Virus record (IMG/VR): IMGVR_UViG_648276647_000010
Coordinates: 1-6,943 of that record
DNA length: 6,943 bases
Strand: one strand, 5' to 3'
Source: a virus
Taxonomy: Duplodnaviria > Heunggongvirae > Uroviricota > Caudoviricetes
Positions 1 through 6,943 of the stretch are shown piece after piece. Position 1 is the stretch's first letter. Every line of letters starts with the position of its first letter. The translations under genes were made by a program, and so were the position numbers. The notes beneath the pieces were generated by a model. The model did not search any database. It was not told the origin of the DNA and saw nothing but the letters and a program-made list of their open reading frames with translations.

Positions 1-254
1 GGCTGATATAGCACCTGTTCTTAAGTTTATAGCGAATGGCCTTAATGGGCCGATATCACCGTTTTCGCCCTGTCCTTCAGCCGTCGGAATGAAATGAAGA
101 AAATCTTCTGAACGACGGAAAATAAGACCGAAGGCATTATTGAAAATTCGCAGCGCATTTATCGCGTCAATTTTCAGTTCTCCGGTCATTTTATCGCCTG
201 AACGCTGAACGGCGTTACCAGCCCTGTTTACCGTTTCCTGTAAACCGAGGTTTT
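1..254 (-). CDS. Phage tail-fibre variable domain (Mu S/S'-type exon inside the invertible G segment), partial; no own start codon, runs off the window edge
   Basis: Hand translation of the minus strand from 254 downward gives an uninterrupted frame to position 1 (NLGLQETVNRAGNAVQRSGDKMTGELKIDAINALRIFNNAFGLIFRRSEDFLHFIPTAEGQGENGDIGPLRPF...). It contains the SGDxMTGxL-type motif typical of phage tail-fibre proteins. The frame begins inside the gix site, as expected for a variable exon that is only expressed after inversion fuses it to a constant 5' part. Not in the supplied ORF track because it lacks a start codon. Confidence 0.55.
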
Positions 255-260
255 AGATAA
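235..260. other. gix-type 26-bp recombination (crossover) site for the Gin invertase; right boundary of the invertible G segment
   Basis: The sequence ttcctgtaaacc-ga-ggttttagataa (235-260) is an imperfect palindrome of two 12-bp half-sites around a 2-bp core. It matches the Gin/Hin/Cin/Pin crossover-site family and sits immediately upstream of the invertase gene, as in phage Mu. Confidence 0.7.
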
Positions 261-314
261 TGGCTGTTTCCGGCCTGCATGGCATGATTTGCGCTTTTAA
301 ACGGGAGATCCAGA

Positions 315-908
315 GTGCTGATTGGCTATGTAAGGGTATCAACAAATGACCAGAATACAGACCTGCAACGAAACGCTCTTGTTTGTGCAGGATGTGAACA
401 AATATTTGAAGATAAATTAAGCGGAACAAGGACAGACAGACCTGGATTAAAACGCGCTTTAAAGCGCCTTCAAAAAGGTGACACACTGGTTGTCTGGAAA
501 CTGGATCGCCTCGGGCGAAGCATGAAACATTTGATTTCTCTCGTAGGGGAATTACGAGAGCGAGGGATTAATTTTCGCAGTCTTACTGACAGTATTGATA
601 CGTCATCTCCAATGGGGCGTTTTTTCTTCCACGTTATGGGTGCCCTGGCTGAGATGGAACGAGAACTAATCATCGAGCGAACGATGGCAGGACTTGCTGC
701 CGCCAGAAATAAAGGCCGTATTGGTGGGCGACCACCTAAACTAACCAAAGCGGAATGGGAGCAGGCCGGGCGTTTATTAGCACAAGGAATCCCCCGCAAG
801 CAGGTTGCATTGATCTACGATGTGGCCCTGTCAACTCTGTATAAAAAACACCCCGCGAAACGAACGCATATAGAAAACGACGATCGAATCAATCAAATCG
901 ATCGGTAA
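315..908 (+). CDS. gin: Serine-recombinase DNA invertase Gin (G-segment invertase, Hin/Gin/Cin/Pin family)
   Basis: 197-aa ORF starting at GTG 315, with GGAGA Shine-Dalgarno at 304-308. N-terminus MLIGYVRVSTNDQ carries the catalytic Ser9 of the resolvase/invertase domain, and the C-terminus has a helix-turn-helix (GRPPKLTKAEWEQAGRLL...). The sequence matches phage Mu Gin as I recall it. In Mu the Fis-dependent recombinational enhancer lies inside the 5' part of this gene; I could not place it precisely by eye. Confidence 0.9.
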   Translation: MLIGYVRVSTNDQNTDLQRNALVCAGCEQIFEDKLSGTRTDRPGLKRALKRLQKGDTLVVWKLDRLGRSMKHLISLVGELRERGINFRSLTDSIDTSSPMGRFFFHVMGALAEMERELIIERTMAGLAAARNKGRIGGRPPKLTKAEWEQAGRLLAQGIPRKQVALIYDVALSTLYKKHPAKRTHIENDDRINQIDR

Positions 909-916
909 TACAGATC
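882..916. promoter_or_regulatory. Triad of Dam GATC sites upstream of the mom promoter (OxyR/MomR binding region when unmethylated)
   Basis: Three GATC sites at 882-885, 900-903 and 913-916, clustered in the 3' end of gin just upstream of the com-mom promoter. This matches the known Mu arrangement in which unmethylated GATCs permit OxyR repression of mom. Confidence 0.6.
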
Positions 917-965
917 GATTATGCCCCAATAACCACACTCAACCCATGATGTTTTTTAAGATAGT
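917..965 (+). promoter_or_regulatory. mom operon promoter region (Pmom) with putative C-activator binding palindrome and T6 spacer run
   Basis: Interrupted palindrome TTAT-gcccca-ATAA at 919-932 is a candidate C-protein site. A run of six T at 952-957 lies just upstream of the -10-like TAAGAT at 957-962, and the AGGAGG Shine-Dalgarno at 981-986 precedes the com ATG at 991. This matches the described weak, activator-dependent Pmom; exact -35/-10 assignment is uncertain. Confidence 0.5.
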
Positions 966-990
966 GGCGAATTGATGCAAAGGAGGTGAG

Positions 991-1179
991 ATGAAATCAA
1001 TTCGCTGTAAAAACTGCAACAAACTGTTATTTAAGGCGGATTCCTTTGATCACATTGAAATCAGGTGTCCGCGTTGTAAACGTCACATCATAATGCTGAA
1101 TGCCTGCGAGCATCCCACGGAGAAACATTGTGGGAAAAGAGAAGAAATCACGCATTCTGACGAAACCGTGCGTTATTGA
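991..1179 (+). CDS. com: Com, zinc-finger translational activator of mom
   Basis: 62-aa [37 protein letters not shown]... with Cys6/Cys9/Cys26/Cys29 forming the CxxC...CxxC zinc site described for Mu Com. Strong Shine-Dalgarno upstream, and the 3' end overlaps the mom start region as in Mu. Confidence 0.9.
1113..1135 (+). promoter_or_regulatory. mom translation-initiation stem-loop (Com-regulated); sequesters the Shine-Dalgarno and GUG start
   Basis: Perfect 6-bp inverted repeat tcccac (1113-1118) / guggga (1130-1135) around an 11-nt loop ggagaaacauu. The loop contains GGAG (1119-1122) and the stem contains GUG 1130-1132, in frame with the mom ORF. This matches the known mechanism in which Com binds just 5' of a hairpin to unmask mom initiation. 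Confidence 0.55.
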
Positions 1180-1846
1180 GTATGAAGGCCAGATTGTTGG
1201 CTATGGTTCAAAGGAGCTGCGCGTTGAAACCATATCCTGCTGGCTGGCCCGCACAATTATTCAGACAAAGCACTATTCCCGCCGTTTTGTGAATAACTCT
1301 TACCTCCACCTGGGAGTATTCAGCGGACGCGATCTGGTTGGCGTTCTCCAGTGGGGATATGCCCTTAACCCCAACTCAGGTCGTCGTGTCGTGCTTGAAA
1401 CGGATAACCGGGGCTATATGGAGTTGAATCGCATGTGGCTACACGACGACATGCCCCGCAACTCTGAATCACGGGCCATCAGCTACGCGCTGAAAGTTAT
1501 CAGATTACTGTATCCGTCAGTGGAGTGGGTTCAGTCCTTTGCTGACGAACGCTGCGGACGCGCAGGCGTTGTGTATCAGGCGTCGAATTTTGATTTTATT
1601 GGCAGCCATGAAAGCACGTTCTACGAGCTGGATGGTGAGTGGTATCACGAGATAACGATGAACGCGATTAAGCGAGGTGGACAACGAGGCGTGTATTTAC
1701 GGGCTAATAAAGAGCGTGCCGTGGTGCACAAATTTAATCAGTATCGCTACATCAGATTCCTGAACAAGCGAGCAAGGAAGCGGCTAAATACTAAGCTATT
1801 CAGGATCCAACCATATCCAAAATCAATTCTGACTGGTATCAAATAA
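1130..1846 (+). CDS. mom: Mom DNA-modification enzyme (adenine N6 acetamido/carbamoylmethyl modification; acyltransferase-like fold), anti-restriction
   Basis: The ORF immediately follows and overlaps com and has the Mu Mom-like sequence (…[40 protein letters not shown]…). I place the start at GUG 1130, which has a GGAG 7 nt upstream and sits in the regulatory hairpin. The ORF track extends it to ATG 1100, which lacks a Shine-Dalgarno. The exact start and the C-terminus relative to canonical Mu Mom are not verified. Confidence 0.8.
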
Positions 1847-1902
1847 CCTATTTGTTCCTGCTGAAAAACAGCCCCTCATGGCATAAAATTGTTCCCGTGA
1901 GT

Positions 1903-1942
1903 TTAAAATGACCAAGTGGCAGTGCATTATTTGGTCATTTTA
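1903..1942. repeat. Inverted repeat TTAAAATGACCAA-N15-TTGGTCATTTTA (12 of 13 bp symmetric), flanked by direct repeats GTGAGTTTAAAA (1897-1908) and GTGAGTTTTAAA (1947-1958)
   Basis: Seen directly in the sequence. It lies between the mom stop and the next gene. It could be an operator for the downstream gene or a weak AT-rich terminator for the mom transcript; the function is unknown. Confidence 0.4.
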
Positions 1943-1981
1943 TGGGGTGAGTTTTAAAGTCAAAACGATGGTAAGGTGCAT

Positions 1982-2317
1982 ATGAAAAAAATACTCACAG
2001 CAGTACTACTTTGCTTTGGTGTTCTTTCTGCTAATCAGGCAATAGCAGTTGTTACCTTAAGCGGTAAGTATCCAGCATGCATATCTGCTAATGAATTCGA
2101 GCGATTAAGTTCAATTTTGCAACACGAAGATCAAGAAGCATTTGAAGAGATCTTTAAAACATCATGCTTTATGCCTAAAAAGGGGCTAAAAGTTGATAAA
2201 GTGGTTTCTATGGGGTGGACCAGTGGGGTTGCGCATGTCAAAGTTTATGTGAAAGGCAATCTTTACGATCTTTGGACTAACACCGAAAATCTTCAGTCCG
2301 AGAAGGCTGGTAAATAA
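1982..2317 (+). CDS. Hypothetical small secreted protein (Sec signal peptide, ~90-aa mature domain with 2 Cys); AT-rich orphan gene
   Basis: ORF with ATG at 1982 (the track starts it at in-frame GTG 1976) and AAGG at 1973-1976. N-terminus MKKILTAVLLCFGVLSANQAIA is a classic signal peptide with an AxA cleavage motif. GC is about 38% over the first 120 bp versus roughly 50% in the flanking core genes. I recognise no family. Confidence 0.6.
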   Translation: MKKILTAVLLCFGVLSANQAIAVVTLSGKYPACISANEFERLSSILQHEDQEAFEEIFKTSCFMPKKGLKVDKVVSMGWTSGVAHVKVYVKGNLYDLWTNTENLQSEKAGK

Positions 2318-2460
2318 AGCAGTAGTCAACCTGTAATCACATCATCTACCAGCTATCGCCTGATAAAGTTAGGTGATAGCTATTTCAATACTCTCTGGTT
2401 TTACTGGAAGCACGAAACTTAATACTCCCATTCCTGATTGCTTAATAATCAAGCATTTTT

Positions 2461-2526
2461 ATCTTGAATGTTTTTGCTATCACACGCGATAGCCTATCTT
2501 GAATGATTTTCAAAAATATCTTGAAT
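2461..2526. repeat. Three direct copies of ATCTTGAAT(G/A) at 2461, 2497 and 2517, with a GCTATC-N6-GATAGC palindrome at 2476-2493
   Basis: Seen directly in the sequence, in the convergent intergenic region between the orphan gene and the 3' end of opgB. A further inverted repeat AGCTATC-N17-GATAGCT lies at 2352-2382. Confidence 0.35.
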
Positions 2527-2575
2527 AATTTTGCGCGCTTTACGCACCTTATGCGACCTACACATCAGTCAGGAA

Positions 2576-4867
2576 TTACCCTTCACGTTCTACCACTTTA
2601 ATTTCCACCATGCCGATCCCGAGCTTACGCGGCGAGTGCCCGAGGATATTCCCTTCGTTGGTTGAGACAGGTTCCGGCGGCACAATTACCAGTGTGTCGG
2701 CATCGGTTGGGTTATCGAAATGCAGTGTGGTGGTGGTCACTTCATTGCCCAGCACAAGGGTTTGTTCTTCATTGCCTACGCGTACCGGAATAGGACGGCT
2801 GGCGTTATTGCCGTATGCTTTGGCGGTAATCACCAGGTCAAATTTCTTCGGCAGCGGATGCTTGTACTCGATTTTTACTTCATCGCCCAGCTGTGCGTTG
2901 GACCAGCGGCCCCACGACTCTGGACGAGAAATCCCGCTAAACTGTTTCACCTCTTCTGGCGCACCAGCGACGTTAAAGATGAAACTGTCGGCTTTGTAGC
3001 GAATATCGTTATCAACAATCTTTAGCGTATCGACATTGCCTTTGTAACGCGCCATGTCGATGACCGTATCTTTAAATGCCGTTTTGCCCTTCCATATTGC
3101 TTTGTCAACATGCTGAACAATTTGCTGACCGCCAAGCTGCCCTTGCGAGACACACCAGTCGGTGGAGAGTGCCAGTTCCGGAGCCCAGAGTTGTGCCATC
3201 TTGTAGCAACGGTCAACCCAGACGAAATTGTCGCGTGGAGCGAAATCTGCCAGCTGGAAACGCAGCGGTGCTGAGTATTCGCTTTCCGGCAGCGGTTCCA
3301 CGCGTTTGTCTGAAACCCGCAACAGCAGCGGCAAACGGAAATGGCTACCTGAGAAGGCAATCATGTTTTTCTGCTGGTCGATGGTGAACTCTTTCATCTC
3401 TTTAGGGAATTTCCACAGGCGGATGATATCCGGCTTCCACGCCAATGTTTTCTCTTTGATATTGAGGAAGATTTCCGACATTGACTGCCCGGATAAACTG
3501 CTACGGCCAAGTCCGAGATAGTTATCGCCACCGAGAATGTCCAGCACCGTCGCGCCGTTATCCATCGTATTACGCTTCACTGCCAGCGTCTCTTGCTGCG
3601 GCTTGTCGCCACGGATGACAAAAAACAGGTTATTGCGATCCTGCTTATTAAGGTATTTCCACGCCGTATTGTTCATCGCTAAATGGTCAGAAGAGACGAC
3701 GATGACGGTATCTTTAAACCACGGTGACGCTTTGATTTTGTTGATAAACGTCGCAATATTCTCCTGGCTGCAACTTACCGCGCTGAATGACTGATTCGGC
3801 TTACCGTCAAAATCATATTTTTTGCGGTTACAGGTGCGCGAGATAAAACCATCCGGGTGATGGGTATCGACTGTCAGGGTAAACAGTGAGAATCGCTGAC
3901 CTGAGCGGGAAAGCTCTTCAAATTTTTTCCACGCTTCATCGAGAACGGTATCGTCGTAGAATCCCCAGTCGTTGCGATAGTGCGGGTCGGCCACCACGCT
4001 TTTCAGCTCTTCTGAGCCGTATAAGTGGTCGAAGCCGTGCGATTTCAGGAACACATCTTTACCGGCAAAACGCAGATTCGCGCCCTGCACGAAATAGTTC
4101 TGATAACCCGAGTTTTTCAGAATATCGCCCAGACAGATGTTCTGCGGGAAGAAGCTGGAGACAGAGGCGGAGGCGTTGCCTTCAAATGGGGCAAACAGCG
4201 GTATGCCGCACTGAGAAGCTACCATGCCCGCAATCGTGTAATCCGTTCCCGGCAGTTGCTGCGTGTGGCTGAAATCCAGGCCTTCATTTTTCAACGCGCC
4301 CAGTTCAGGCGTGAGATCCGGGAAAGCCTCGTTATCAAAATAGGTCCGCTCGAGACTTTCGCCGTAGATATAAACCAGGTTGAGTTTCGGGTCAGGGATA
4401 GTTCTCGACGGCTCTTTATAATAAGCCGCAAAGTCCGGGTCGCCGTCGCGTGACTGGGATTTCACCAGTTCCGTTATCTGACGAAATGCCGGGCTGGCAT
4501 CCACTGAACCCAGCGCCAGTAAGAGTGCCAGCAGGCTGTAACCAAAATGGTGCGGATGATGGCGACGACGGCGCAGGATCCAGCCCAGCGCACCGAACAC
4601 CGCCGTCAGCCCCAGCACAATGCCGATACCCGGCAGGATGTATTTGCTGACGCCAGCACCGGTCAGGCTGTTGGTTAAGGTATAGAGAACCGCGTCGTTA
4701 ATACCATCGCCAGTAAAATAGTCGCTGGCAAACAGGGTGATATTTAAAACGACAAATAGCCCCAGCACCGTTAACGTGGCTGCAAACCACCAGGTGTTAC
4801 GTCCCGCTTTCCATGCGTAAATCAGCACAGAGGCGAGAAAAAGGGCGAAAGAGAGTAGTTCTGACAA
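2576..4867 (-). CDS. opgB: Phosphoglycerol transferase I (osmoregulated periplasmic glucan biosynthesis; sulfatase/LTA-synthase-like membrane enzyme)
   Basis: 763-aa ORF with N-terminal transmembrane helices ([20 protein letters not shown]..., [15 protein letters not shown]..., [19 protein letters not shown]) followed by a large periplasmic sulfatase-type domain. Length and sequence match E. coli MdoB/OpgB as I recall it, and the position downstream of yjjA-dnaC-dnaT matches the E. coli gene order. Confidence 0.9.
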
Positions 4868-5120
4868 CGGGCGATCCTCACTAAACCGGGCCGTTTAGCC
4901 AACGTTTAAGCTTTTTGAGAAGCACAATGTAATGGCGTCGCCATATTGCTGCAATTCTAGTGTCAAAAAAATGCGACGTTGTTAGGAATTAGTTTATAAA
5001 CAGACTTTTTTGATCGCGGTCGCTTCCCGTGTAACAGGGGTAAAACCGTCCAGGAGCAGGGAAAAGGGCAGGAGAGAGCCGCGTCAGCCGGGTAACAGCT
5101 AAAACGCGGCGTTTCGCGGT

Positions 5121-5618
5121 TCAGGAAATGAAGTTCAGCCCCTGCTTTAATACTAGATCGCAGGCTTTGGTTTTCACCTTTTCTGCCAGCGGAGTCGTTC
5201 CAATATTATCCAGATTGAGTTGCTGACCATCTTTGGTTTTCAGCAAACCCTGAATGCCATCCAGATAGTTGGTGTCTTCTTTTTGCTCTTCACTGTTCAG
5301 GCCCAGTTTTTCCAGTACCTGATTCTTGATGTTTTCGGCATCGGTTACCGAAGCCAGCTTTTGCTTCGCACAGTATTGCAGAATGCCTGCGGCGTTGTTC
5401 ATGTTATCTGCGCTTAAGGCCTGGTTCCCGCTGCTAAGCAAGTTAGTTAATGACGCGAGCGACCAACCGCCTTCCTGTGTCGTGTTGTTTTGGTTGCCAA
5501 GTTCGCTGGCGGCGCTGGAGAGCGCATCTTTCCAGGACGCAGCATGCACCCCGGTGGAAATTAATGCGCTGGCGGCAATGGCACAGCACAGAAGATGTTT
5601 AATAGTTTTCATCATCAT
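5121..5618 (-). CDS. yjjA: Conserved secreted protein YjjA (DUF2501 family)
   Basis: 165-aa ORF with signal peptide (MMMKTIKHLLCCAIAASALISTGVHA). It lies between dnaC and opgB as in E. coli. The true start may be the 2nd or 3rd of the three tandem ATG codons. Confidence 0.75.
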   Translation of the reverse strand: MMMKTIKHLLCCAIAASALISTGVHAASWKDALSSAASELGNQNNTTQEGGWSLASLTNLLSSGNQALSADNMNNAAGILQYCAKQKLASVTDAENIKNQVLEKLGLNSEEQKEDTNYLDGIQGLLKTKDGQQLNLDNIGTTPLAEKVKTKACDLVLKQGLNFIS

Positions 5619-5663
5619 TACTCAAGGTTGAATTGTGTCGCAGTATACCGCCAGAAACGGGGA

Positions 5664-6401
5664 TTAATACTCTTTACCTGTTACACGGCTACGGTAGCTA
5701 TCCCAGTTGAAGATCACCCACAAACTGTTACCCAGGCGCATACGGTCCATCACGCGTTCGCCCAGCAACTTGGTCATCTCTTCCATATTACTGTTGGTCA
5801 GCATCCCGGTTGGGCGTTTGGAAGAAGAGCGGCGATCGACGATCTGGTTGATGATCACTTTTTCGTATTTCGATTCGGTCTGCACGCCGATCTCATCGAT
5901 CACCAGCAGATCAACGTTACTCAGATCGTTAAGCAGTTGTTCTTCGCTGGTACCGCTATTCCTGAAGGTATCTTTCATCGCCGACATAATATCGGCCACG
6001 GTGATGATCAATACGGATTTACCGCGTAGCAGCAGCTCGTTGCAGATTGCCGCCGCCAGATGGTTTTTGCCGGTTCCTGGCTTGCCAGAAAAGATGAAGC
6101 TGGCGATGTTGCCGTCAAACTCTTCGACATACTGGCGCGCTTTGCTTAACGCATTCATCTGCCCTTCACACTCAACGCGATAGTTCTCAAAGGAGCAGTT
6201 CTGATGCAGTGGACGAATACCGGAGCGGTTAAAGGTGCGCTGCATTTTCATCGCCCGATTTTCACGTTCGAGAGCGGCGGAGCGGATCGCCCCTTGTTCT
6301 TTCTGCCAGGCCAGTAATTCTTCACCCGTTTTGAACGCAGGTTTGATATGGGCAGGCATCATTTTTTGCAGGCGTTGCATCAGGTCGCCAACGTTTTTCA
6401 T
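5664..6401 (-). CDS. dnaC: Replicative helicase loader DnaC (AAA+ ATPase)
   Basis: 245-aa ORF with Walker A motif GKPGTGKNHLAAAI and Walker B-like LLVIDEIG. The sequence matches E. coli DnaC, and the start lies 2 bp from the dnaT stop, indicating an operon. Confidence 0.95.
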   Translation of the reverse strand: MKNVGDLMQRLQKMMPAHIKPAFKTGEELLAWQKEQGAIRSAALERENRAMKMQRTFNRSGIRPLHQNCSFENYRVECEGQMNALSKARQYVEEFDGNIASFIFSGKPGTGKNHLAAAICNELLLRGKSVLIITVADIMSAMKDTFRNSGTSEEQLLNDLSNVDLLVIDEIGVQTESKYEKVIINQIVDRRSSSKRPTGMLTNSNMEEMTKLLGERVMDRMRLGNSLWVIFNWDSYRSRVTGKEY

Positions 6402-6403
6402 CG

Positions 6404-6943
6404 TTACCCTCTGAATCCTGGTGGAATTTGGCTGTCAGGTTCACTGACCGTATTCACATCTCGTTTCGGCAGTCCGCCGTTGCTGGCACGACCGATTTGC
6501 AGGCTGCGCGCCAGTTTTTGTTGCCACTGCACATGGTGAAAGACTTTGCCTTCCGCCTGCCAGTAGGCAATGAATGACGCCAGTTCTTCGGCGGTCACCG
6601 GCTCTCTTAGTGCCACGCCCCATAGCGCCGCCAGGCGGATAAAGTCGGCATCGGGTTGCCAGTCCGGATACATGGCAAATTTCCCCATGGGTACGGCAAC
6701 GGGAGCGGTTTGCGGTTCCTGATAGAGTTGATCGTCCAGGGCCACGTCACTTCCCGGACGCGCCAGCTTTTCTTCCAGCGCCAGCAGTTCAGCCAGGCGT
6801 GCAGGCGTGATGGCATAAAACGCCGGGGCATTGTTAGCAAATACGGCAACCACACCGCCTTCAGCTTTTGCCAGAACGGTTTGGTGATCGTGTACCAGGG
6901 CGTCAATACCAACGACGTCCGGGGTCAAAACTCTGGAAGACAT
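6404..6943 (-). CDS. dnaT: Primosomal protein 1 (DnaT)
   Basis: 179-aa ORF ([30 protein letters not shown]...) immediately upstream of and co-directional with dnaC. Its ATG is the reverse complement of the last three bases of the window, so the CDS is complete but its promoter is outside the window. Confidence 0.9.

Follow-up and report, generated by a model that had tools for sequence, protein, structure and literature searches.

The region at positions 866-990 of the window is, with a probability of roughly 0.9, the Pmom (momP1) control region of the com-mom module, and it would work as it does in phage Mu. The window is the whole stretch of DNA that was analysed, 6943 bp in length. The region carries the Dam sites, the activator site, and the poor promoter of Mu in the same order and at the same spacing, and no evidence contradicts the Pmom explanation. 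The feature is already known and is textbook biology, not a new control region.

The control region is composed of a cluster of three GATC sites, a TTAT-N6-ATAA inverted repeat, and a promoter with poor hexamers (Table 1). The original prediction placed such an arrangement at 882-965, and this span was accurate. Three GATCs within 35 bp, starting at 882, 900, and 913, were confirmed by reading the sequence and by regular-expression search; they occupy 882-916, lie upstream of the activator site, and have the sequence and spacing of Mu. The palindrome that had been described after the GATCs, together with the T6 run and the weak -10, is likewise present. The palindrome occurs only once in the 6943-bp window by regular expression. 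Both promoter hexamers are non-consensus (ACCACA and TAAGAT) and are separated by a 19-bp spacer containing T6, so that the features of an intrinsically poor sigma-70 promoter are present in the sequence. A scan with the sigma-70 consensus called no promoter in the Pmom interval, which is expected of an activator-dependent promoter. A search of Rfam at gathering thresholds returned nothing in the window.

Table 1. Features of the window, with positions relative to a transcription start (+1) inferred at about 969
Feature	Position	Strand	Relative to +1	Remarks
gin, G-segment invertase	315-908	+		197 aa; GTG start as in Mu; from the list of open reading frames; Pfam Resolvase and HTH_7, E=7e-50
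Upstream negative-control region, putative OxyR operator with three Dam sites	866-917		about -103 to -52	
GATC I	882-885		-87 to -84	Within CGATCG; sequence reading and regular expression; invariant in 15 intact natural copies
GATC II	900-903		-69 to -66	Within CGATCG; starts 18 bp after GATC I; invariant in 15 intact copies
GATC III	913-916		-56 to -53	Sequence reading and regular expression; invariant in 15 intact natural copies
TTAT-N6-ATAA inverted repeat (C box)	919-932		-50 to -37	TTATgccccaATAA; predicted site of the late activator C; abuts and overlaps the -35
Pmom (momP1) -35 hexamer, ACCACA	932-937	+	-37 to -32	Poor match to TTGACA; same as Mu
T6 run	952-957	+	-17 to -12	3' end of the 19-bp spacer; invariant in all copies compared
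Pmom -10 hexamer, TAAGAT	957-962	+	-12 to -7	Regular expression
com, zinc-ribbon translational activator of mom	991-1179	+		62 aa; Pfam Zn_ribbon_Com; PHROG 'gpCom control of modification', E=3e-45
mom, DNA adenine modification enzyme	1130-1846	+		Overlaps the 3' end of com; Pfam Mom, E=3e-75; PHROG 1384
Cargo open reading frame	1982-2317	+		111 aa; hydrophobic N-terminus; variable slot after mom
Prophage right end	2460-2542	+		Three 18-bp direct repeats and terminus ...GCGCGCTTTA at 2542
E. coli chromosome	2543-6943			
opgB	2576-4867	-		
yjjA	5121-5618	-		
dnaC	5664-6401	-		
dnaT	6404-end	-		

Alignment to the gin-mom intergenic region of Mu, which had been proposed as a check, found the GATCs, the half-sites, the -35, the spacer with its T6 run, and the -10 to be Mu base for base. 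Positions 800-1010 align to Mu without gaps and with two differences, at 864 and 894, and only the latter lies inside 882-965. Within 866-990 the single difference is C894, a T in Mu, and 909-990 is 100% identical. Every defined element of the Mu promoter (three GATCs, TTATGCCCCAATAA, ACCACA, the 19-bp spacer with T6, TAAGAT) is matched in sequence, order, and spacing, and the com Shine-Dalgarno sequence and the com-mom overlap are also the same. Mu differs in the T at 894, in another base at 864, and in the C-terminal tail of Mom. In the Mu GenBank record AF083977, the equivalent of 916-982 (35693-35759) lies between gin and com and is labelled 'late promoter'. The similarity extends well beyond the control region: by megablast, 173-1846 matches the gin-com-mom block at 97-98% identity in Mu, D108, SfMu, and related Yersinia phages, and the gene order gin, com, mom is shared with Mu, D108, and SfMu. 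Over 204-1821 there are 46 mismatches to Mu.

The single features are not rare. When the window was shuffled 2000 times with dinucleotides preserved, about 10% of the shuffles had a cluster of three GATCs within 35 bp and about 10% had a TTAT-N6-ATAA. Three further such clusters, overlapping one another and all inside dnaC, are present in the window itself. The joint arrangement, in which the cluster is followed by the palindrome within 30 bp and then by T6 within 40 bp, was found in 0 of 5000 shuffles. The decisive evidence is the alignment to Mu, not these statistics.

Transcription from Pmom of Mu is under the control of Dam and OxyR (PMC3378877). The promoter has a poor -35 and -10, suboptimal spacing, and a stretch of T that curves the DNA, and it depends on the activator C as a result (PMC3378877; PMC4461284). 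C binds a site overlapping the mom promoter, unwinds the DNA for RNA polymerase, and then aids promoter clearance; the C-dependent late promoters of Mu are lys, I, P, and mom (PMC4461284). C also requires the sliding clamp, according to a 2025 preprint (bioRxiv 10.1101/2025.01.04.631326). When C is absent, polymerase occupies the divergent promoter momP2 (PMC3378877; PMC4461284). Fis represses through sites centred at -123, -98, -49, -38, and +3 (PMC3378877), and translation of mom requires Com (PMC3378877; PMC4461284). The architecture that had been predicted for the window, in which Dam and OxyR act on a poor promoter remodelled by C, matches this published model, and all of its elements are identical to Mu Pmom. 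Fis repression and the competing momP2 are two known layers that were absent from the prediction.

Applied to the window, the published model would give the following switch. The core promoter, with ACCACA, TAAGAT, and a 19-bp spacer distorted by T6, would be crippled, and RNA polymerase could not use it unaided. A dimer of C on TTAT-N6-ATAA, overlapping the -35, would unwind the DNA, realign the promoter elements, recruit polymerase, and promote its escape. Dependence on C would confine transcription to late lytic growth. Host OxyR lying across the three GATCs would repress the promoter when they are unmethylated or hemimethylated, and full methylation by Dam would exclude OxyR. Fis and the competing momP2 would add further silencing. 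Com would be the first product translated from the transcript, and the toxic Mom could not be translated without it. The likeness to Mu thus predicts, for this copy, dependence on methylation and binding by OxyR, C, and Fis.

Positions relative to the transcription start were obtained from a published primer. The complement of the mom reverse primer of PMC3378877, which is reported to anneal downstream of +56, is window 1025-1044, and this puts +1 at about 969. The derived coordinates fit the restriction and Fis sites of the same paper: the BstUI site CGCG at 855 and the PvuI site CGATCG at 881 lie downstream of the Fis sites at -123 and -98, respectively, and the C box coincides with those at -49 and -38. 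The placement of the OxyR and C footprints was taken from secondary descriptions and these primer coordinates.

The best match to the OxyR consensus in the whole window lies at 879-915, over the GATC cluster, and is weak, with 13 of 20 specified positions matching. This consensus is reportedly ATAGnTnnnAnCTAT-N7-ATAGnTnnnAnCTAT, as described by Toledano et al. in 1994. The agn43 (flu) switch of E. coli likewise has three GATCs inside an OxyR operator, and there, as at Pmom, methylation shuts out OxyR and bound OxyR shuts out methylation. The agn43 switch acts on a host gene and gives heritable phase variation, whereas Pmom also requires a phage activator and is not known to phase-vary. The idea that the GATCs stay persistently undermethylated in a dam+ lysogen is speculation, and this is not a known property of Pmom.

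The genes around the control region are intact, and the Pfam and PHROG assignments of Gin, Com, and Mom are in agreement. The final 27 nt of gin overlap GATC I and GATC II, and the substitution at 894 lies in this overlap: compared with Mu, T894C turns the gin stop codon TAA into CAA, which adds four codons (QIDR) and moves the stop to 906-908. D108, a Yersinia phage, and most of the prophage copies also have C at 894, and Mu is the outlier; gin is likewise annotated with 594 nt in D108 and APEC E19057. Weakening of the OxyR site by T894C was considered and rejected, as the base falls at an unspecified position of the consensus, leaves the score unchanged, and is the majority allele. com is preceded by a Shine-Dalgarno sequence, GGAGG, at 982-986, and its product differs from Mu Com by one substitution, K52E. 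The mom start given here is the GTG annotated in Mu, at 1130, while RefSeq-style annotations take the ATG at 1100. Residues 1-225 of Mom are identical to Mu Mom, and the C-terminal tail is like that of D108. All open reading frames of the gin-com-mom block are intact, and annotation of the locus as an intact com-mom module is sound.

Natural variation in the region was compared across 16 copies, made up of Mu, D108, a Yersinia phage, E. coli prophages from complete genomes, and eight contigs with the same cargo open reading frame. The window is the consensus of these copies, and over 850-1000 it is matched at 100% by three complete E. coli genomes. With the relic of phage SJ46 left out, 13 of 137 columns are variable, and none of the 13 falls in the 36 element positions, defined as the three GATCs, the two half-sites, the -35, the T6 run, and the -10 (hypergeometric P=0.015). 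The variable columns lie in the stop codon of gin, in the spacer between the -35 and T6, and, within the C box, at N6 positions 924, 926, and 927; the half-sites of TTAT-N6-ATAA are invariant in 15 intact natural copies. In the prophage of E. coli S6, which has no gin, homology is kept from about 860 onward. D108 shares C894 and the 197-aa Gin and has two changes in the C-box N6 (924 and 926); its mom is followed by gp56 and its right end is a Mu-type attR, in contrast to the different cargo open reading frame and the non-Mu end of the window. The Pmom regions of SfMu (from Shigella), the Yersinia phages, and the E. coli Mu-like prophages also have C894 and the 197-aa Gin.

The SJ46 relic provides a contrast. 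SJ46 is a P1-like Salmonella phage with a stretch 3' of its invertase gene that is 85% identical to the window over 850-1000. Its GATCs are mutated to GCTC, GGTC, and GATT, its half-sites read TTGT and ATAG, and its -10 is changed. com ends after 8 codons, and there is no mom. Judged from its sequence, this relic is what decay of the Pmom region looks like.

A competing account of the likeness to Mu is passive conservation, in which the block diverged so recently that the switch need not function or be under selection. Identity of the 84-bp stretch is expected from recent ancestry alone, because the gin-mom block as a whole has 97-99% identity to Mu. The flanking coding DNA is 97.5-98.9% identical, so one mismatch in 84 bp is about background, and the region is present in 46 of 5426 complete E. 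coli genomes, always at 96% identity or more. Near-identity to Mu alone therefore proves little. The pattern of variation speaks against this account, as the variable sites of the 16 copies all avoid functional positions, although the selective signal is modest (P about 0.015). The copy in SJ46, detached from mom, has lost its GATCs, half-sites, and -10, while here com and mom are whole. In a second Mu-like lineage, described below, GATC I and GATC II survive at their 18-bp spacing although the remaining upstream region has been rewritten. Taken with the agreement between the variation and the published elements, these observations leave passive conservation unlikely, and a Pmom region that works as in Mu is the preferred reading.

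The prophage that carries this Pmom does not end as Mu does. Its late genes (tail, invertase, and com-mom) are closely related to those of Mu, and longer contigs have a full Mu-type tail module upstream. A Mu-type attR, with MuA-binding sites whose consensus contains CGAAA and a terminal ...CGCCGCTTCA with 3' CA, is not what follows mom. The right end finishes with ...TTTTGCGCGCTTTA at 2542, has no similarity to the right end of Mu or D108, and contains repeats of the form TATCTTGAAT(G/A)(T/A)TTTT(G/C)(C/A) starting at 2460, 2495, and 2517. Eight loci end at exactly base 2542 and continue into seven different host sequences, and seven distinct insertion sites indicate the transposon-type end of a phage that is active now or was recently mobile. 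One of these loci, from SRR024152, is 100% identical to window 225-6943. From 2543 onward the window is 100% identical to several complete E. coli genomes, and the prophage sits 33 bp past the stop codon of opgB. An exact-match scan of genome contigs for the junction between prophage and host found none.

The slot between mom and the right end is variable. Its 111-aa cargo open reading frame has a promoter-like site upstream, at 1861-1889, and no family match in Pfam or PHROGs. A protein identical to its product is found on 24 contigs, and an exact 43-mer of the reading frame is absent from IMG/VR. The 696-bp segment after mom (window 1847-2545) has no match in phage or plasmid collections and was found in just 1 of 5426 complete E. 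coli genomes.

The tip and repeats of the window also make up the right end of a second lineage of E. coli Mu-like prophages, referred to here as lineage 2. These prophages have their own Mu-family transposase, termini of the form 5'-TATGACTAGG...GCGCGCTTTA-3', and ATTCAAGATA repeats at both ends. On either side lies a 4-bp duplication, which reads ATTC in STEC346 and GAAA in FDAARGOS_943; for STEC346 the empty yhfX site was reconstructed, and a 100% match to it confirmed the duplication. The termini of Mu are TG...CA and its target duplications are 5 bp long, whereas lineage 2 has TA...TA termini and 4-bp duplications.

Upstream of com-mom, lineage 2 (STEC346, FDAARGOS_943, and the IMG/VR UViG 2513237361) keeps TATAG-N7-GACGATCGA...ATCGATCG, with GATC I and GATC II at the same 18-bp spacing, and com and mom follow, with a right end of the same type as in the window. 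GATC III, TTAT-N6-ATAA, ACCACA, T6, and TAAGAT are all missing, and com lies 11 bp closer. A different activator presumably acts on this region.

The tail genes of the phage type found in the window, examined on locus L009, are 98% identical to Mu-type genes and have no blastn similarity to lineage 2. Mu-type tail genes joined to a lineage-2 right end make the phage a chimera, and by inference the transposase and left end of the prophage in the window come from lineage 2 as well. A related arrangement is found in E. coli 2014C-3075, where a collapsed copy of the window-type end lies in a canonical Mu prophage and is followed by a 3' remnant of Mu mom and by attR. In our reading, an element inserted into mom, and the two copies of mom then recombined.

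A chimeric origin raises the possibility that the switch has been orphaned. If the phage had taken its transposition module, and possibly its middle region, from lineage 2, it might have no C for TTAT-N6-ATAA, and mom would be permanently silent. The lineage-2 right end in place of a Mu attR is in keeping with this, as are the single annotated Mor-family gene in each of the two lineage-2 prophages examined and the different promoter-proximal sequence that lineage 2 has upstream of com. The related Mu-type prophage of 2014C-3075 has two Mor-family genes. Against an orphaned switch, the tail and baseplate genes on L009 are of the Mu type, at 98% identity and with no blastn similarity to lineage 2, and the seven distinct insertion sites argue for a viable phage. 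Since the late operons of Mu are C-dependent (PMC4461284), a phage whose late genes are of the Mu type would have to supply a C of that type to be viable. Permanent silence of mom is accordingly very improbable. The window contains neither dam nor oxyR nor the gene for C, and because the prophage is chimeric, with a right end and presumably a transposase from another lineage, the cognate Mu-type C gene elsewhere in the prophage is one that we infer rather than see.

That the gin-com-mom block is part of a truncated or decaying prophage, stranded by a deletion that removed a Mu attR, would fit the lack of a Mu attR after mom in a window that shows just the right 2.5 kb of the element, but this was rejected and keeps next to no probability, given a precise repeat-bearing terminus common to eight loci with seven flanks, the homology of that terminus to the right end of complete lineage-2 prophages, the full Mu-type tail module upstream on longer contigs, and the intact reading frames of the block. 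The view that the Pmom module is still regulated rather than decaying, put forward in the original prediction, is supported by intact com and mom, by variation that spares the elements, by the contrast with SJ46, and by the seven insertion sites.

A broader interpretation is tentative and on balance doubtful. It holds that a Mu-type switch sits in a chimeric, TA-ended phage whose late genes are 97-98% Mu, that the silencer formed by Dam and OxyR is ancient and portable and has been retained irrespective of the activator box, which is specific to each lineage, and that the TA-ended system may be undescribed. A literature search found no relevant description of the TA-ended lineage, which is not proof that it is undescribed.

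The finding re-identifies one of the best-characterised phage promoters and matters little in itself. Pmom is the classic example in which Dam methylation counters OxyR and an activator reshapes a distorted promoter. The 16 natural copies and the decayed relic form a small natural-variation data set that agrees with the published functional map. The surroundings are of modest value for research on Mu-family transposition and phage mosaicism. The only unusual aspect lies near the finding and not in it: a late region of the Mu type is linked to an end that has a TA terminus, goes with 4-bp duplications, and occurs at many insertion sites.

Copies of the mom control region (window 866-990) are found in other phages and prophages (coordinates in the table). 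SJ46, a P1-like Salmonella phage, carries a decayed control region followed by com codons 1-8. This relic is found downstream of pin, an invertase gene; every GATC in it is mutated, as is the C box, the TTAT-N6-ATAA motif predicted to bind the late activator C. A Mu-like prophage of E. coli S6 has lost gin, and its tail-fibre assembly gene is truncated, yet the control region is retained, with homology beginning precisely at about window 860. In L010, a contig with the window's phage type, the gin product is called at just 98 aa, and gin is probably disrupted; the control region and com-mom are unchanged except for one upstream base.

The gin stop-codon position (window 894-908) is polymorphic. 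Mu has TAA and some prophages have TGA; the window and D108 have CAA, so that Gin is either 193 or 197 aa. L009 and L012, also contigs of this phage type, possess a further T-to-C change at window-equivalent 906, which lengthens the called product to 205 aa. This longer ORF would run through the C box.

GATC sites are also clustered in the chromosomal gene dnaC (minus strand, 5664-6401), where seven occur within 94 bp of coding sequence, a higher density than in the mom control region.

The right end of the window's prophage is non-Mu in type. It contains three 18-bp repeats of the TATCTTGAAT type, terminates in ...GCGCGCTTTA, and has no Mu attR. In public assemblies the same right end is seen at seven different insertion sites, and it has no match in the phage and plasmid collections searched. 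The variable slot after mom is occupied by a 111-aa cargo ORF, accompanied by a promoter-like site. Its product has a hydrophobic, signal-peptide-like N-terminus and no match in Pfam or PHROG. In D108, this slot holds gp56, which is unrelated.

A collapsed copy of the foreign right end, with one repeat, is located within a canonical Mu prophage of E. coli 2014C-3075. It is bordered on one side by a hybrid mom and the cargo ORF, and on the other by what is left of the 3' end of Mu mom, together with attR. The arrangement looks as though the other phage had inserted into mom and the two mom copies had then recombined.

Coordinates of features in the window and in related loci
Feature	Locus	Position
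GATC cluster in dnaC	window	5834-5927
Prophage right end	window	1847-2542
Cargo ORF	window	1982-2317
Promoter-like site	window	1861-1889
Control-region relic, SJ46	L003	2495-2680
Control region, E. coli S6	L006	1375-1640
gin called at 98 aa, one copy	L010	8631-8927
gin stop-codon region, extended Gin	L009, L012	about 8925-8951
Collapsed right end, 2014C-3075	L002	about 41260-41400
Second-lineage ends, STEC346	L019	10847 and 46091
Second-lineage ends, FDAARGOS_943	L020	1126 and about 35830
Second-lineage end, other locus	L017	307
Second-lineage end, other locus	L018	4432
Second-lineage com-mom upstream region	L019	45020-45135
Second-lineage com-mom upstream region	L017	1265-1387 (- strand)

Some E. 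coli Mu-like prophages form a second lineage, whose termini are TA...TA, with ATTCAAGATA repeats at both ends, and whose members are flanked by 4-bp target duplications (ATTC, GAAA). The ATTC duplication was checked and confirmed against the empty yhfX site. Mu, in contrast, has TG...CA termini and 5-bp duplications. No description of this TA-ended lineage turned up in the searchable literature.

Upstream of the com-mom operon, members of this lineage keep TATAG-N7-GACGATCGA...ATCGATCG. Two GATCs are present at the 18-bp spacing of Mu GATC I and II, whereas GATC III, the TTAT-N6-ATAA box, the T6 run, and the Mu -35 and -10 elements are absent. This pattern of shared and missing motifs suggests that conservation of the Dam/OxyR half does not depend on the activator half of the switch.
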